From IMG/VR virus record IMGVR_UViG_2974782369_000001, positions 32,001 to 96,000 of that record: DNA of 64,000 nucleotides. The stretch is one strand, 5' to 3'. Each line of letters begins with the position of its first letter. The stretch's first letter is position 1. The notes below the pieces were generated by a model. It did not search any database and was not told where the DNA came from. It was given only the letters and a program-made list of their open reading frames with translations. Below, in pieces: positions 30,478 through 44,385 of this stretch. The translations under genes and the position numbers were made by a program. The stretch comes from a virus. Lineage: Duplodnaviria > Caudoviricetes.

Positions 30478-32629
30478 AACCTGTTGCTAGTCTTGTATGC
30501 CAAAATAGATTACCACTACCAGAGTTATTTAATACTCTAGACGAGGATATTATATCACCATTTGAATTGGTTAGCAACCATGCTCCACCTGCAGGATTAT
30601 TTGCCCAAGTATCTGGTGTCAATCCTCCATGTGCAACATTAACAGCATCCATCCTCAATTTATATACTCCAGGTGCAGCAGTAAAACTATAACTACCAGT
30701 AGAAGTAAACGAGGAATGAGTTGCAACCTGCACAGAATTCCAATATAAGGTCATCTGATTATCACATGCATATTGTAATGTATAGGTATCATTTTCACTG
30801 ATTGTCACTACATGGGTAATCGTCTGTGTGGTCCCCACCAAAGGATTATCAAACTCAGGCCAAATAGCATAGTCATTCATGAAAGTATTCCATGCTGAGA
30901 TACCTGTGATTGGCACCCAATCCAAAGCATTTGCTGCCACGCATGGACCACCTCTACAAATCTTAAGGTACCATCCCCCAGGATTATATCTCCAGTCAGC
31001 AGCAGTTGGATTTAGATTTGCCTCTAAAATCCCATTCCTAACACCTTGAGCGCATGAAGGATAGAATACACCTTGCACCAGAGGAGCAGTATTCTCCCCT
31101 AGATTCCAACCAACGAGAATAGAATTTGTTTTTGTGCTTGCCCAAATAGTTGGATCGATTGGATCATCAGTTACTGATCCACCAGCAGCAACATAATAGT
31201 CAACGTGTGTTTGCATACCAGATGGCTCTGGTGGTCTACCACTACTGGAATATTGTCCAGGAGTTGATTCAGTCCTACCAAACCTACCACTCAAGTATTC
31301 ATCAGCAATTGCTCTTGCAATAGGAGTAAAATAATTAAACGGTGTATTCTCACGATACCCAAAATCTCCTCTCTCTTCTGTGCCATCGACTCTAACCAAT
31401 AAAACATTTGCCACAGATCTCATATTGTCATCTGAAGAAACAAACTGACTGTTTCTATTTGTGCATTGGACAATGATCTTATGAATACCTTGAGTAACTG
31501 TTGCACTTGCTACCCAAGGATCTCTATATCTACCACCACTCGAAATGCCATCATTGATATCAAGAAGTGGAGTTGGATCATCATCAATAAAAAATCTACC
31601 TGAGTCATCAGCACCAAACTCAAAGTAATAGGTATCGGTGGCAGGGAATGTAATGGTGTATGTTACCTCTTGAGGAATGCATGGTAGTGTACATAACTCA
31701 GGATTTGTCCAAACCCCATAGTTGGTGCCATTTTCATTCCAAAGGTTTGTGCCTGATGCTGATCCACTTGAATAGTTTGAGATCCAGAATGTAGCGTTAC
31801 AATCAGATCCATCACCATCCTTTAAACACATTGTTGTGTTAGCAGCCTGTAGCAGAATAGGTGTGTTGGCAGCATTTAAATTACTAAAGGTAACTGGATA
31901 AGTTGTATCTGCAATAACGCTTATTGTTTTAGTTTCCCTTCCAGATTCTCCACTTCTAGTCCAAATTGTGCCATTGATAGATACAGAATCAAGAGCAACA
32001 CCAGCATTACTTGTATCATCATCCCACTCCAATGTAAATTCAACATTGCCGCCAGCACCACCAACAATCAACTGAGATCCATCATCACTAAAAGCAACTG
32101 TCATGGTATCAGTCTCTTCAGAGAAAGCATCTACAGGATAGGTAACTGGAGATGATCTTTCTACAGCATATTTTTTTATGTTTACTCCAGATCCATCTGT
32201 GAAAATTGTTGGTCTGATATTAATATCTGGTCTATATGGGACACATGAATCTGGTCCAAGTCTAGGGACAAAAAACTCATCATCAATACCAAATCCCGCT
32301 TGAGACTCTTCCTCCCAATTAAAACACACACCACTATTATTAATACATGTAGTGCCATTAAAATCACTGATGTCATCTACTGTAGTGACTGATCTGCAAT
32401 CGTAGTATTCAATACTACCATCTGGAAGTGTCCTCTGCTTACACTCTGTCCTTAAAACGGATGGCACTTCTGCAGGAAAATTTCTATCTCTTCCATCTGT
32501 AGGATCAATAGTAACAAATGGATCATCTAGAACAGCAACCTGCTCCACAGGAGGTCCTGCCTCTGCTCTAGCGGACGACCCAGGATCACAAAGAGGTCCA
32601 AAATATCCTTCTGGTTGATAAAATGCCAT
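30452..32629 (-). CDS. virion structural protein with PA14-like domains
   Basis: 725 aa, GADDSG..FID and ACDN beta-rich repeats, NPGG/NPAG motifs. Confidence 0.65.
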   Translation of the reverse strand: MAFYQPEGYFGPLCDPGSSARAEAGPPVEQVAVLDDPFVTIDPTDGRDRNFPAEVPSVLRTECKQRTLPDGSIEYYDCRSVTTVDDISDFNGTTCINNSGVCFNWEEESQAGFGIDDEFFVPRLGPDSCVPYRPDINIRPTIFTDGSGVNIKKYAVERSSPVTYPVDAFSEETDTMTVAFSDDGSQLIVGGAGGNVEFTLEWDDDTSNAGVALDSVSINGTIWTRSGESGRETKTISVIADTTYPVTFSNLNAANTPILLQAANTTMCLKDGDGSDCNATFWISNYSSGSASGTNLWNENGTNYGVWTNPELCTLPCIPQEVTYTITFPATDTYYFEFGADDSGRFFIDDDPTPLLDINDGISSGGRYRDPWVASATVTQGIHKIIVQCTNRNSQFVSSDDNMRSVANVLLVRVDGTEERGDFGYRENTPFNYFTPIARAIADEYLSGRFGRTESTPGQYSSSGRPPEPSGMQTHVDYYVAAGGSVTDDPIDPTIWASTKTNSILVGWNLGENTAPLVQGVFYPSCAQGVRNGILEANLNPTAADWRYNPGGWYLKICRGGPCVAANALDWVPITGISAWNTFMNDYAIWPEFDNPLVGTTQTITHVVTISENDTYTLQYACDNQMTLYWNSVQVATHSSFTSTGSYSFTAAPGVYKLRMDAVNVAHGGLTPDTWANNPAGGAWLLTNSNGDIISSSRVLNNSGSGNLFWHTRLATGYEYVEQIV

Positions 32630-36314: not shown

Positions 36315-36431
36315 TAAACAGGTAGTAAGACCATCAGGGAAATGGTGGAGTTACTATGCTCCCCGCACCCTCAGCGGGGATATGAGAGACGGATTGGTAA
36401 CCCTGCCTAGTCTCGGTCAAGCGGCAGGGGC
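36315..36431 (-). ncRNA. PhotoRC-II-like structured psbA leader RNA
   Basis: CCCTGCC/GGCAGGG, TCCCCGC/GCGGGGA and ACCAT/ATGGT stems; GAGAC/GTCTC and GAGGG/CCCT pseudoknot pairings; directly 5' of psbA. Confidence 0.8.
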
Positions 36432-36473
36432 GGTAACAAAACTCAAAGGTCCGTTACATTTGTTTACCTATTT

Positions 36474-38871: not shown

Positions 38872-38953
38872 TACACATGAGAGGACTTGAACCTCCACAG
38901 ATTGCTCTACTGGAACCTAAACCCAGCGCGTCTACCAATTCCGCCACATGTGC
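38872..38953 (-). tRNA. tRNA-Leu(TAG)
   Basis: Cloverleaf with long variable arm, TAG anticodon. Confidence 0.95.
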
Positions 38954-38956
38954 GTG

Positions 38957-39240
38957 TGCTGGTTTTGACTGGACCAGAAACCAGGCGGGGTAACCCCATC
39001 CGCACCACCTGCTTTTGAGAGAAGCAGGAAACTCCGAGGGGTCGAAGACCCATCCCGACCAGGGTTGTTAACGTGTCTCCATCACGGGCATATTAGGGAT
39101 GACTCCACCAGTGTTTTTAACGTCTTTCCATGACGGGGCGGGGGCGCTAACCCCCCATGCACGCCACCAATTCTTTACAAGGAAAAATTGGAAACCTCGC
39201 GTCAACGAGTGTATAAACATCTCTCATGCGTTGAAAACCA
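38957..39240 (-). ncRNA. structured ncRNA array (manA/wcaG-like cyanophage RNA)
   Basis: GC-rich stretch with no long ORF, repeated hairpin/pseudoknot modules and UGGYG-like motifs, directly 5' of a tRNA. Confidence 0.7.
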
Positions 39241-41538: not shown

Positions 41539-41700
41539 TCAAAAACGATACTCGTCAAGTATCTCTAATACTCTATTGAGCTCATAATGGGCACCCCGAT
41601 GCCACTCTCCTGTTTTATCGGGGTGGTTAAAATTCAATTCATGCTTGAGTTTTAAGACTCTACACTTCAATTCATCTTTTGTTATTGGATTACGAGGCAT
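41539..41700 (-). CDS. small hypothetical protein
   Basis: 53 aa, TAATG-coupled to talC. Confidence 0.65.
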   Translation of the reverse strand: MPRNPITKDELKCRVLKLKHELNFNHPDKTGEWHRGAHYELNRVLEILDEYRF

Positions 41701-42356
41701 TACAGATTCTCCTGTAATGATTTCCAATCCTTATCAAACAACTCAAGTCCTTTGTCTGTCAGCGTGTGATCGTATAGTTTCTGGAAGATGTCATAAGGCA
41801 TAGTGCAAACGTCAGCACCCACTCTAAAGCAAGCGGGTACTTGACGAGCCTCCCTGATAGAAGCAGCAAGGACTTCAGTCTTAACGTTATGTGTTGCATA
41901 CAGATCCGCAATTTCTTCAATGAGTCCGATACCATCCCAATACTGGTCATAGAGACGACCAACAAAGGGAGACACATAGGATGCCCCTGCCTTCGACGCT
42001 AGGATCGCCTGACCCGCTGAGAAGACCAGAGTGACATTCACCTTCATCTCCTCGTCTGAGAGCGCCTTACATGCCTTCAGACCCTCTCTTGTGCATGGTA
42101 CTTTGATCGTAATGTTTGGACTGATCTCCATGTAGTCTTCTGCCATTGTCAGCATCTCACTAGCGGTCTCTCCGACCACCTCAGCAGATACTGATGCATT
42201 CCATGGAAATATATCTGAGATCTCTTTAATGACACTTACTGGATCTTTCCCTGCCTTTTTCATTAGACTGGGATTCGTTGTCACACCATCAATCAACCCT
42301 GTTGAATACGCTTGGGCGATGAGGTCTGGATCAGAGCAGTCTAGAAAGATTTTCAT
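41700..42356 (-). CDS. talC: transaldolase (TalC/FSA family)
   Basis: IFLD, GVTTNPSL, IKVP, NVTLVFS, YVSPFVGR, LAASIR. Confidence 0.95.
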   Translation of the reverse strand: MKIFLDCSDPDLIAQAYSTGLIDGVTTNPSLMKKAGKDPVSVIKEISDIFPWNASVSAEVVGETASEMLTMAEDYMEISPNITIKVPCTREGLKACKALSDEEMKVNVTLVFSAGQAILASKAGASYVSPFVGRLYDQYWDGIGLIEEIADLYATHNVKTEVLAASIREARQVPACFRVGADVCTMPYDIFQKLYDHTLTDKGLELFDKDWKSLQENL

Positions 42357-42392: not shown

Positions 42393-42416
42393 AAAAAAGC
42401 ACCCTTACGGGTGCTT
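42393..42416 (-). terminator. rho-independent terminator
   Basis: AGCACCC-GTAA-GGGTGCT plus T tract. Confidence 0.75.
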
Positions 42417-42435
42417 CATGTGCATATCAAGACAA

Positions 42436-42600
42436 TTATTTTTTATTATAGATTGGATCTATATTTAATAATTCATCAAAATATTCGCGCAAGTGAATTT
42501 TGTAACAGGACCAGTATGTTACCCCTCTATATTTGAGTTGGTAACAACTGGGTGGTCTGTTACTAGCATCCATATCATCAAAGTGATATCGATAATCCAT
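42436..42600 (-). CDS. YRG-motif microprotein (DUF4278-like)
   Basis: 54 aa MDYRYHFDD...LKYRGVTY; start adjoins the upstream stop. Confidence 0.6.
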   Translation of the reverse strand: MDYRYHFDDMDASNRPPSCYQLKYRGVTYWSCYKIHLREYFDELLNIDPIYNKK

Positions 42601-42764
42601 CACTTATTATAGGTGTGACCGCGATAGCAGAATGTGCCATGAGTTTCTTCAACACCTTGCTTGCACTCATATACTACACCACGATAAGCGGTGTGAGAAA
42701 TTTGTGCATCGTGCAGTGCTGCTGCTTTCTGGATCTGCTTCTTGATCAGAGTAAGTGTGTTCAT
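42600..42764 (-). CDS. DUF4278-like microprotein
   Basis: 54 aa MNTLTLIKKQIQKAAALHDAQ..AYRGVVY...FCYRGHTY; AGGAG SD; follows the riboswitch. Confidence 0.8.
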   Translation of the reverse strand: MNTLTLIKKQIQKAAALHDAQISHTAYRGVVYECKQGVEETHGTFCYRGHTYNK

Positions 42765-42800
42765 TTGTTTTCTCCTGAAATACTAAGGTTAGTTAAAACC

Positions 42801-43068
42801 CGTTCCTTCAGTCGTTTGCGTCCTTGCTATCAAAACAATGGGGATCTGTATGATTAATCCAATGGATTAAGATATCAGATTTTTCAGCGGGAGTGAAAAG
42901 AGTTGTCTCTTGCAGTCCCTGCTTCAACCATTCATAGTCTTCACAGCGAAGATGATTCTCCACTGGGACATGACTAAAAAAGATGAGTGCTAATGATAAC
43001 ATAGGATGAACGCTCCGTTCCGCGACTTACTTGCGTCTCACCATCGGAAAGAGAGGGTGAGATGAACG
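42801..43068 (-). promoter_or_regulatory. tandem glutamine-riboswitch-like aptamers (glnA/Downstream-peptide class)
   Basis: Two copies of CGTTCAT-stem-CGCAA...GGAACG upstream of a DUF4278-like gene. Confidence 0.75.
42808..43002 (-). CDS. small protein nested within the riboswitch
   Basis: 64 aa, hydrophobic N-terminus, two Cys; GGAG SD upstream. Confidence 0.6.
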   Translation of the reverse strand: MLSLALIFFSHVPVENHLRCEDYEWLKQGLQETTLFTPAEKSDILIHWINHTDPHCFDSKDAND

Positions 43069-43074
43069 TAAATG

Positions 43075-43088: not shown

Positions 43089-43221
43089 ACTTATATTTAT
43101 GAGAGACTACTATTCTGAAGTAGTTTCGAGTGATACATTTTGCATCGCCTTCTTTTTCTCATTTGCCCAGAGCATCTCGGCAAAGGGATTACCGAATTGC
43201 TCTGTCTTGTCTAGTATAGCA

Positions 43222-44385
43222 TCAAAGGCTGAATCCTGCAAACGTTCCTGCGGTGATGTCTTGTTTGATTCCTCCGACGACATAAGATTCGATCTCCGTT
43301 TCTTGTGGTGCATTCTGCTGACCCTTAGAGTTGAGCCAGTGCTCAGTCCAGGGCAGAGGATTATTCTTGGCAGGGATGTCGTAGATGGGTTTTAGACCAA
43401 TTGCTTTCATACGACGGTTAGCAATCCACTCAACATAGTTGTTGAGAAGACGATCATTAAGACCGATCATGCTACCATCACGGAAAAGATATTCTGCCCA
43501 ACACTTCTCTTCGTTGACAGTCCTCTTAAACATTTCAATCACATAGTCTTGCTCTTCGTTAGCAATCTGCTGCATTTCAGAATCATCACCTTCACGCCAC
43601 TTGTTAAGAATGTTTTGAGTGATAACAAGATGCTGATTTTCATCACGAGCAATCAGTGAGAGAATCTTTGCGCTACCTTCCATGAGTTTGTTTTCACCGA
43701 AAGCAAACGAGCAGGCGAAGGAAACATAGAAGCGAATACCCTCTAGAATATTCACATTAGCAACTGCACGATACAGTTTACGCTTCAACTCAATGCGCTC
43801 AAAGGTGCCAGCATAGTGACCTTCCTTTGCCAATTCCCACATAGTCCCACCATCATACTGATGAGCAGCTTCAATAAAACTGTCATAAGATTCGGTGACA
43901 GATGCAGCACGCTCTAGAATGTTTTCGTCGTCCAGGATGGTGTCAAACACTTCACTAGGATTGGGATAAACATTCTTGATGATGTGTGTATAAGAGCGAC
44001 TATGAATCATCTCCATAAACTCCCAGACAGTCATACATGCTTCTAACTCAGGGAGTGAGCAGTAAGGGATAAAAGCCATCCCAGGACCACGCCCTTGTAC
44101 AGAATCCAGCATGATCTGGTATTTAAGATTGCTGGTGAAGATGTGCTTCTGCTGCGGTGTAAGTTGTTGATAGTCACTTCGATCCTTTTGGAGGGAGACC
44201 TCCTCAGGTCTCCAGAAGTAACCAAGTTGTTGTTGAGTGAGCCTATCGAAGACAGGATACTTGTATGAATCATAGCGTTGGACGCTGAGGGGAGCACCAA
44301 AAAACATAGGTTGTTTCTTGGTGTCTACTTTCTTTTTGTTAAATACGGTCATTCCTTTTACTTCTTTAGACTTTACAGGACTCAC
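43222..44385 (-). CDS. nrdB: ribonucleotide reductase class Ia beta subunit
   Basis: FWRPEEV, EMIHSRSY, LEGIRFY, RDENQH. Confidence 0.97.
   Translation of the reverse strand: MSPVKSKEVKGMTVFNKKKVDTKKQPMFFGAPLSVQRYDSYKYPVFDRLTQQQLGYFWRPEEVSLQKDRSDYQQLTPQQKHIFTSNLKYQIMLDSVQGRGPGMAFIPYCSLPELEACMTVWEFMEMIHSRSYTHIIKNVYPNPSEVFDTILDDENILERAASVTESYDSFIEAAHQYDGGTMWELAKEGHYAGTFERIELKRKLYRAVANVNILEGIRFYVSFACSFAFGENKLMEGSAKILSLIARDENQHLVITQNILNKWREGDDSEMQQIANEEQDYVIEMFKRTVNEEKCWAEYLFRDGSMIGLNDRLLNNYVEWIANRRMKAIGLKPIYDIPAKNNPLPWTEHWLNSKGQQNAPQETEIESYVVGGIKQDITAGTFAGFSL

Follow-up and report, generated by a model that had tools for sequence, protein, structure and literature searches.

The window analysed here is a stretch of 64,000 nucleotides (positions 32,001 to 96,000 of IMG/VR record IMGVR_UViG_2974782369_000001, a virus record of 174 kb), and on its minus strand, from 43068 to 42801, it carries a structured RNA that we read as a type-1 glutamine riboswitch (glnA RNA) in nested twin form, forming part of the leader of a pair of small DUF4278/IF17-like genes. 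Its outer aptamer is connected in the canonical type-1 manner, and a second, inner module lies within the P3 helix of that aptamer; the inner module in turn encloses a gene of 64 codons. It appears highly probable to us that this nested fold exists with a real gene embedded in it, and to the complete reading, which includes the way of working proposed below, we assign a probability of about 0.6. The element is composed of the following parts.

43064-43068, minus strand: 5' strand of the outer P1, CGUUC, pairing with 42801-42805 in the minimum-free-energy (MFE) fold and invariant in 86 of 86 aligned loci
43036-43062, minus strand: outer P2 hairpin, UCUCACC...GGUGAGA, with compensatory changes across loci
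43028-43035, minus strand: conserved junction CGCAAGUA, matching the Rfam Glutamine consensus aCGGAAGUA and invariant in the alignment
43023-43027, minus strand: 5' strand of the shared P3, AGUCG, pairing with 42810-42814 and 100% paired in 86 sequences
43008-43020, minus strand: inner P1' hairpin, GAACG-GAG-CGUUC, found in the MFE fold and subject to the CAACG/CGUUG double change
43013-43016, minus strand: Shine-Dalgarno sequence GGAG of the nested gene, in the P1' loop region, recognised by the association of the loop with the open reading frame (ORF)
42994-43006, minus strand: 5' strand of the inner P2', UCCU(A)UGUUAUCA, which includes the AUG (43000-43002), from the MFE fold and covariation
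42808-43002, minus strand: nested gene, 64 codons and a stop, phrog_13397, from the ORF, the ratio of nonsynonymous to synonymous substitution rates (dN/dS) and PHROG
42821-42832, minus strand: 3' strand of the inner P2', UGAUAGCAAGGA, which is also the last sense codons of the nested gene, from the MFE fold, covariation and partner permutation
42815-42820, minus strand: inner junction CGCAAA, kept in ORF-less relatives too
42810-42814, minus strand: 3' strand of the shared P3, CGACU, whose last base opens the stop UGA (42808-42810), from P3 covariation and ORF parsing
42801-42809, minus strand: GAAG junction and 3' strand of the outer P1, GAACG (42801-42805), matching the Rfam consensus GAAGGAACG when ORF-less relatives are aligned in the nested reading

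Read along the minus strand, the 5' unit CGTTCA-TCTCACC...GGTGAGA-CGCAAGTAAGTCGCGGAACG (43068-43016) is followed by GAG (43015-43013) and by CGTTCATCCT (43012-43003), immediately after which stands the ATG (43002-43000). The 3' unit, AGGACGCAAACGACTGAAGGAACG (42824-42801), contains the stop TGA at 42810-42808, and TCCT(A)TGTTATCA is paired with TGATAGCAAGGA in the MFE fold. All the stretches quoted in an initial annotation of this DNA were found on the minus strand where that annotation had placed them. Since CGCAAA is kept also in relatives that lack the ORF, it is the RNA that is constrained there and not the codons only. The layout exceeds chance expectation: the 174-kb phage record contains two matches to the pattern GACGCAA-N5-14-GGAACG, both of them at this locus, and none to its reversed control. 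The 8-mer CGTTCATC is not significant by itself (two found, 1.48 expected).

The same layout was present in 14 of 14 related phage loci, belonging to several Kyanoviridae genera and to two genomic neighbourhoods. It opens with CGTTCA, a hairpin, GACGCAAGTAAGTCGCGGAACG and GAG, continues with CGTTCATCC(T/C)ATG, the ORF and (A/G)GGACGCAAACGACT(G/A)AAGGAACG, and closes with about 30 nucleotides, AGGAG and a small gene. A first scan of viral contigs with an 18-nucleotide junction gave at least 120 loci; the window, the 14 phage loci and 120 contigs were parsed together as 135 records, 129 of them with a complete element. For the second viral scan the seed was the 3' half, which leaves it unbiased for the junction; it too gave at least 120 loci, 110 of them parsed and 10 unparseable.

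CGUUC is found twice in the element, as strands a and g, and so is GAACG, as strands e and e', which allows two topologies. In the nested one, a pairs with e' (CGUUC 43068-43064 with GAACG 42805-42801) and e pairs with g as the inner hairpin; in the other, the units stand side by side. The initial annotation had described the latter, with an aptamer 1 followed by a split aptamer 2 and a P1 for each; its two aptamer-like units were recovered, but the tandem arrangement was not, as strand covariation shows nesting. In the 110 parsed loci of the second scan, the e and g strands read GAACG/CGTTC in 102, CAACG/CGTTG in eight and are mixed in none, and strands a and e' keep CGTTC and GAACG in all of those eight, as inspection by eye confirmed (in two of them the automatic parse had taken a look-alike within a hairpin). 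The change to CAACG/CGTTG keeps the nested helices perfect and mismatches both side-by-side helices, and the nested assignment follows from it. The eight loci differ among themselves in loop, ORF family and outer architecture.

The competing view, that two independent tandem glutamine riboswitches follow one another, each with its own P1 and the second simply with a long P2 loop, agrees with the frequent occurrence of glutamine riboswitches as pseudo-cooperative tandem doublets in the available sections of two reports (Sherlock 2022, PMC9481103; Weinberg 2010, PMC2864571). It also agrees with the weak Rfam matches of the 5' unit alone, which is the MFE structure of the nascent RNA, and with the fact that the side-by-side fold lies just 2.8 kcal/mol above the nested one, in an energy model that cannot score the P3 pseudoknot which the side-by-side fold would need. 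However, this view leaves both P1 helices mismatched in the eight loci, where the nested helices stay perfect; neither unit forms a P3 hairpin by itself, the pairing and covariation at P3 being between the units; and in Rfam the nested reading reaches 46 bits, against 23-28 bits for single units. Two independent riboswitches are already disfavoured by covariation, and we regard them as improbable.

The complementarity of AGTCG and CGACT, pointed out in the initial annotation, corresponds to a real helix that covaries across loci. Over the 129 complete elements P3 reads AGTCG:CGACT in 117, AGTCA:TGACT in three, AATCG:CGATT in two, and GGTCA:TGACT and AGACT:AGTCT in one each; the remaining cases are one G-T intermediate, one extra base after AGTCG, one T-T mismatch and two loci in which each side is three bases longer. 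Within the nested gene the substitutions of the P3 3' strand are synonymous, so that protein constraint does not explain them. Covariation of the long-range stems, which the annotation had proposed as a check, was found both for P3 and for P2'. In a whole-element alignment of 86 sequences, 98.8% of the cells are paired under the nested structure, a value that none of 500 shuffles matched, with both-sided changes at six pairs; when the partners were slid, 33-53% were paired. The MFE fold of the window RNA is the nested one (-82.4 kcal/mol), the fold of 278 nucleotides has a z of -3.37 with none of 200 shuffles as stable, and RNAalifold applied to 11 ORF-less twins gave the nested fold too.

From this connectivity the inner module can be described as a circularly permuted aptamer look-alike that shares P3 with the outer aptamer, its order starting at strand g and its P1' being closed by the GAG loop. 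In four loci (L039, L066, L119 and L311) CGTTCG replaces the CGTTCA of the outer aptamer, and (T/G)TGCAAGTA stands where the others have ACGCAAGTA; these linked changes suggest, from the sequences compared, a tertiary contact between the two junction positions. Locus L325 carries an insert of about 60 nucleotides in the inner P1' hairpin loop, between GGAACGGAGCG and CGTTCATCC. Two metagenomic members of the glnA seed in supplementary file 4 of Weinberg 2010 (PMC2864571) have a long P3 insert containing GCAAGUA...GGGAACG, a nested aptamer-like piece from another lineage.

The proposal that a whole gene sits inside an aptamer helix was borne out by frame keeping, by dN/dS and by the alignment of the protein family. 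The nested ORF has 64 codons in the window (43002-42808, minus strand), and among the 129 complete loci 126 possess an in-frame ORF of 49-66 codons that starts with ATG, 10 or 11 nucleotides after the start of CGTTCA (16 in one locus). Its stop is a TGA or TAA overlapping CGACT in 120 of the 126, and lies 15 or 28 nucleotides earlier in the other six. In place of the ATG two of the remaining three loci have TTG, and the third, L117, is ORF-less. Only frame-keeping classes are seen among the lengths of the split unit. Although 122 of the 126 nested proteins are distinct, all forms align as a single family with two invariant Cys and a C-terminal DAND. By the method of Nei and Gojobori, with the first five and the last seven alignment columns excluded, the median dN/dS is 0.18 in the 64-residue group (21 sequences, 180 of 210 pairs usable, all below 1) and 0.31 in the group of 52-56 residues (89 sequences, 2423 of 3916 pairs usable, 99.5% below 1), the unusable pairs being saturated or too close. 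Judged by this pattern of substitutions, the nested ORF is a real coding gene. Conserved nucleotides of the aptamer supply the last four codons of the gene and its stop.

The nested protein belongs to phrog_13397 (E = 1.9e-46), a family of unknown function; it has no Pfam family match, Foldseek against the PDB gave no match at E <= 0.001, and a homology search returned close unnamed relatives only, with no lead in the Atlas. An AlphaFold model on the family alignment (mean predicted local distance difference test, pLDDT, 85.4) has helices at residues 2-9, 20-32 and 38-50, and the DAND tail, which is the part written by aptamer nucleotides, has low confidence in it.

The start signals of the nested gene are themselves held in helices. 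The ATG lies within the long-range stem and the stop within the 3' strand of the aptamer, as had been annotated. P2' always pairs UCC(U/C) with (A/G)GGA, with a U-A/C-G switch in 27 cells of the 86-sequence alignment, and runs over the AUG to a total of 5-13 pairs (mean 8.4); 200 permutations of the partners gave 6.70 +/- 0.14 pairs, with a maximum of 7.06. The GGAG linker, which the initial annotation had taken for the Shine-Dalgarno sequence of the nested gene, behaves as one, tracks the presence of the ORF and is located in the three-base loop of a 5-bp hairpin. In the second scan the P1' loop is GAG or GAGC, giving GGAG, in 89 of 97 ORF-bearing loci and in 0 of 13 ORF-less ones (Fisher p = 7.7e-12, relatedness ignored).

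The same annotation had called the sequences glutamine-riboswitch-like, and this agrees with a sub-threshold match of the 5' unit and with ORF-less relatives that lie over the Rfam threshold. At permissive scores the 5' unit (43012-43070) matches Glutamine RF01739 with 23.1 bits (cut-off 35) and Glutamine-II RF01704 with 23.0 bits (cut-off 33), the second hairpin of the latter model being largely unmatched; the split 3' unit was undetected by the permissive scan of the window. The 195-nucleotide gene of the window falls in the P3 insert of RF01739, which the scan did not span. The scan was extended to natural ORF-less relatives. The twin L117 gives a single hit of 46.4 bits to RF01739, in which a:e' is assigned to P1, the first hairpin to P2 and AGU...ACU, enclosing an insert of 41 nucleotides, to P3. 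Eight of 10 further ORF-less twins score 35.6-43.6 bits with the same nested reading, so that nine of 11 pass the threshold; each has one hit of 86-101 nucleotides with a P3 insert of 38-41. A freshwater-2 match (21.2 bits, cut-off 49.9), resting on the AGGAGAAAACAAAUG stretch, was set aside.

Compared feature by feature with the type-1 family, the window has CGUUC/GAACG (43068-43064 with 42805-42801) as the P1 that closes a three-way junction, and, read as nested, it continues in the type-1 order with a P2 hairpin, then the junction ACGNAAGUA, a short P3 and GAAGGAACG, P2 and P3 both covarying. The setting is likewise that of type 1, the leader of DUF4278 (IF17-like) genes. The junction has a C in the window where the Rfam consensus has G, and the glnA seed alignment as first published contains such CGC variants (supplementary file 4 of Weinberg 2010, PMC2864571). 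A Glutamine-II aptamer would have two hairpins and a pseudoknot between CGUUC and a hairpin loop, with at least 33 bits where 23.0 were found; in independent tandem aptamers each would have its own P1 and P3, and here the P1 strands are exchanged and P3 forms between the units. By its sequence features, then, the element is a member of the type-1 glutamine riboswitch family, and glutamine is its likely ligand.

A structured element with some other role (a protein-binding site, a ribonuclease processing site or the aptamer of another ligand) might also resemble glutamine aptamers. Such a role would fit the sub-threshold scores of the window itself, the junctions CGCAAGUA and CGCAAA in place of CGGAAGUA, the CG that replaces GAAG in the inner module, and the weakness with which the phage proteins match DUF4278. 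We nevertheless find it very improbable, given that nine of the 11 ORF-less relatives tested exceed a curated Rfam threshold, that CGC junctions are present in the published glnA seed alignment (Weinberg 2010, PMC2864571) and that the gene association agrees with the known one.

The element is widespread and its helices can hold more than one gene. With >=99% identity, a core of 35 nucleotides occurs in 286 records of phages, each bearing the name Synechococcus phage or Cyanophage, and among the 10 records listed no annotated feature lies under it. In the first viral scan, 42 loci are without the compact outer P2, and 35 of these carry instead an ORF of 65-75 codons, which starts 10-13 nucleotides after the first CGTTCA and ends at a stop in or beside the 3' strand of P2 or else at the TAA within CGCAAGTAAG. 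Seven loci remain: three are compact CGTTCG variants, two lack upstream DNA, in one the first ATG is out of frame, and one has no stop. The outer and inner nested proteins are homologous (hhalign 95.1%, E = 3.1e-8), with both Cys aligned. Of 98 loci classed in the second scan, 72 share the architecture of the window, with a compact outer P2 and an inner ORF; ORFs fill both positions in 14, 11 are compact on both sides and one has an outer ORF with a compact inner P2'. A scan of genome contigs with a 15-nucleotide junction motif returned at least 120 matches in unrelated bacteria, about what chance predicts for 596 billion bases, and is uninformative on cyanobacterial hosts.

ORFs are also found in the peripheral loops of group I introns, and the fold could in the same manner be real but act as a switch for the downstream DUF4278-like genes only, its P2 loops being parking sites for small genes and its conserved halves recombination anchors. 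The existence of all four combinations of compact and ORF-bearing loops (72, 14, 11 and 1) would be expected in that case, as would an ORF that is highly variable (122 distinct proteins in 126) between invariant flanks, and ORF-less forms such as L117 and a metatranscriptome contig. Parking does not account, though, for a start codon that is always within a helix, a Shine-Dalgarno sequence that forms the loop of a 5-bp hairpin and a stop that overlaps P3. Parking in a loop would not call for so tight an integration, and with it some coupling of translation and folding is hard to avoid; we consider mere parking unlikely.

Several observations weigh against the nested riboswitch as a whole. Rfam at gathering scores gave no match at the locus, the permissive RF01739 score of its 5' unit is well below the cut-off, and two ORF-less twins (L280 and L292) were not listed at gathering score. 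Both viral scans were seeded with conserved motifs, which biases the samples to the consensus. As the P1 strands are invariant in most loci, the nested assignment rests on the eight loci with CAACG/CGTTG, which may descend from one or few events, and the side-by-side fold is close in energy. GGAG is missing in eight of the 97 ORF-bearing loci of the second scan, and L117, from the first scan, has a GAG loop with no ORF. A search for anti-Shine-Dalgarno pairing for the downstream gene found none, only a small hairpin after P1.

We propose that the nested riboswitch works as follows. The outer aptamer consists of P1, the P2 hairpin, the junction CGCAAGUA, P3 (AGUCG with CGACU) and GAAG, and the same P3 helix carries a second, aptamer-like three-way junction formed by the P1' hairpin and the long-range P2' that encloses the gene. 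In folding predictions, RNA prefixes of 57-120 nucleotides fold the 5' unit alone and leave the Shine-Dalgarno sequence and the AUG free, and the nested fold becomes the MFE fold only after the last GAACG is present; from this we infer a time window for ribosome loading, followed by sequestration. The nested gene would thus be translated from nascent RNA in which the 5' unit alone has folded, and once the 3' strand has been made the nested fold would bury its Shine-Dalgarno sequence and AUG. Glutamine presumably stabilises this fold, and the folded state would also set the expression of the downstream IF17-like gene, in either direction. A ribosome translating the nested gene would unwind P2', P3 and the outer P1; as it would stand on P3 and the outer P1 when finishing the gene, the outer aptamer would have to open, and translation and aptamer folding would be mutually exclusive.

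In the available text of Klähn 2018 (PMC6212724), glutamine activates translation of Synechocystis gifB and DUF4278 genes are the usual partner of glutamine riboswitches. By analogy, the glutamine-bound fold may turn the downstream DUF4278-like gene on and the nested gene off, a reciprocal output that we put forward only tentatively. With somewhat less than even confidence we extend it to a translation-gated twin riboswitch, in which ribosome traffic and the glutamine-stabilised fold would exclude each other, the two outputs would be opposite and the aptamer halves would serve as recombination anchors. If this were true, a small nested Cys-Cys protein and a downstream IF17-like protein would be produced from one RNA, the invariant halves would double as anchors for a hypervariable small-protein cassette, and riboswitches would be common in cyanophages yet invisible to covariance-model scans. 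The element would also offer a natural case of competition between translation and ligand-dependent RNA folding, and it would tie a small phage protein family of unknown function to the nitrogen status of the infected cell.

Riboswitches are thought to be rare in phages. The 286 phage records with the 35-nucleotide core compare with two glutamine aptamers, in two cyanophage genomes, in the available part of McCown 2017 (PMC5473149). With the type-1 glutamine riboswitch RF01739 the element shares the CGUUC/GAACG P1, the P2 hairpin, the ACG(C/G)AAGUA junction, the short P3 and GAAGGAACG, as well as the position upstream of DUF4278/IF17-like genes and relatives (the ORF-less ones) that pass Rfam. 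It differs in that P3 is closed by a second aptamer-like junction and not by a loop, that a whole protein gene lies in a helix and that it measures 268 nucleotides against about 55-60; a gene-bearing element of that length is missed by covariance-model scans. Split aptamers of other families may escape detection too, because such scans do not span inserts of this kind.

The tandem glycine riboswitch also consists of two homologous aptamers, joined by inter-aptamer contacts into one folded unit; whereas each of them has its own P1 and the contacts are tertiary, here there are a shared Watson-Crick helix, nesting and an enclosed coding sequence. It is listed as a dual aptamer with one expression platform in Sherlock 2022 (PMC9481103), where 157 doublets and four triplets of glutamine riboswitches are given as separate, pseudo-cooperative riboswitches; the word "nested" does not occur in the sections of that text available to us. 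Those doublets resemble the element in having two adjacent glutamine-aptamer-like units on one leader, and differ in that here P3 is shared, the P1 strands are exchanged and there is mostly a gene inside. Some of them are probably the ORF-less form of the element.

Ties between glutamine aptamers and short ORFs are known in the Glutamine-II or Downstream-peptide aptamer of marine picocyanobacteria, which accompanies ORFs of 17-100 codons, and in yfr6, an RNA of about 250 nucleotides holding a short ORF (both in the available parts of Weinberg 2010, PMC2864571). In Glutamine-II, however, the ORF is downstream of the aptamer and not inside it, and the pseudoknot model fits the window poorly (23.0 bits against 33). 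The glnA seed alignment of the same paper lists sequences like the 5' unit and like the 3' unit as separate members. In the literature searched we found no aptamer helix that encloses a complete gene with start signals and stop made of aptamer nucleotides, nor did a search on glutamine riboswitches of phages in connection with small proteins turn up anything relevant. The twin nested topology with embedded genes has apparently not been described in the type-1 glutamine family, although nesting of compact doublets may be noted in literature beyond that searched.

The window comes from a marine cyanophage, its type being given as a T4-like Synechococcus phage, and the closest named relative is Cyanophage S-RIM4, with 98.5% identity over the locus. 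The element is flanked by nrdB (43222-44385) and talC (41700-42356), and the unit is ordered as structured leader with the 64-codon ORF, 54-residue gene, 55-residue gene and terminator-like hairpin. The parts after the riboswitch are these.

42772-42776, minus strand: AGGAG, Shine-Dalgarno sequence of the downstream gene, from the sequence
42600-42764, minus strand: downstream gene of 54 residues, DUF4278-like, phrog_545, from the ORF list, Pfam and PHROG
42436-42603, minus strand: second small gene (55 residues), DUF4278-like, PF14105 at E = 3e-3, under the Pfam cut-off
42396-42417, minus strand: intrinsic-terminator-like hairpin closing the unit

The downstream gene had been annotated as DUF4278-like, and it is, by a weak match (20.6 bits against a cut-off of 25.3); the E values of the two downstream ORFs against PF14105 are 5.7e-4 and 3e-3, matches that fall short of the Pfam cut-off. 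Among the 129 loci examined a downstream protein was found in 120, and 91 of these start with MNTL as in the window. Metatranscriptome contigs from four runs of four studies map to 42455-43054, and none outside those bounds; they are mixed phage relatives and indicate presence in RNA libraries, not start, level or translation. One of them has the ORF-less P2' form with a six-base loop.

In 82 of 120 loci with sufficient upstream DNA, a sigma-70-like promoter ends 7-9 nucleotides before CGTTCA; by the same test there is none in the window, in S-RIM4 or in S-RIM8. Just upstream of the riboswitch lies an ORF of 67 residues (43110-43313, minus strand; phrog_12245, E = 4.7e-21) that overlaps nrdB at the 3' end of the latter, and between this ORF and CGTTCA, where relatives carry the promoter, stand the hairpins CTACT..AGTAG and GTAAC-GAAA-GTTAC. 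Straight after the outer P1 most loci have a small conserved hairpin, GG(G)..UAA..CC(C), at 42781-42800 in the window, possibly a part of the expression platform of the downstream gene. Eight loci (L006, L019, L034, L036, L041, L083, L117 and L132) carry, after the last GGAACG and before the downstream AGGAG, an extra conserved element of about 30 nucleotides with the form AACGGATC-hairpin-GA(G)AAGGTTAA, which is absent from the window and might serve as an expression platform or as one more structured module. S-RIM4 (L001, 1213-2007) has an additional hypothetical gene of 795 nucleotides between the second DUF4278-like gene and talC, which the window is without. Elsewhere the window carries two RNAs over their Rfam thresholds, wcaG (38944-39036, minus strand, 65.1 bits) and PhotoRC-II (36346-36441, minus strand, 55.6 bits), and eight transfer RNA genes.

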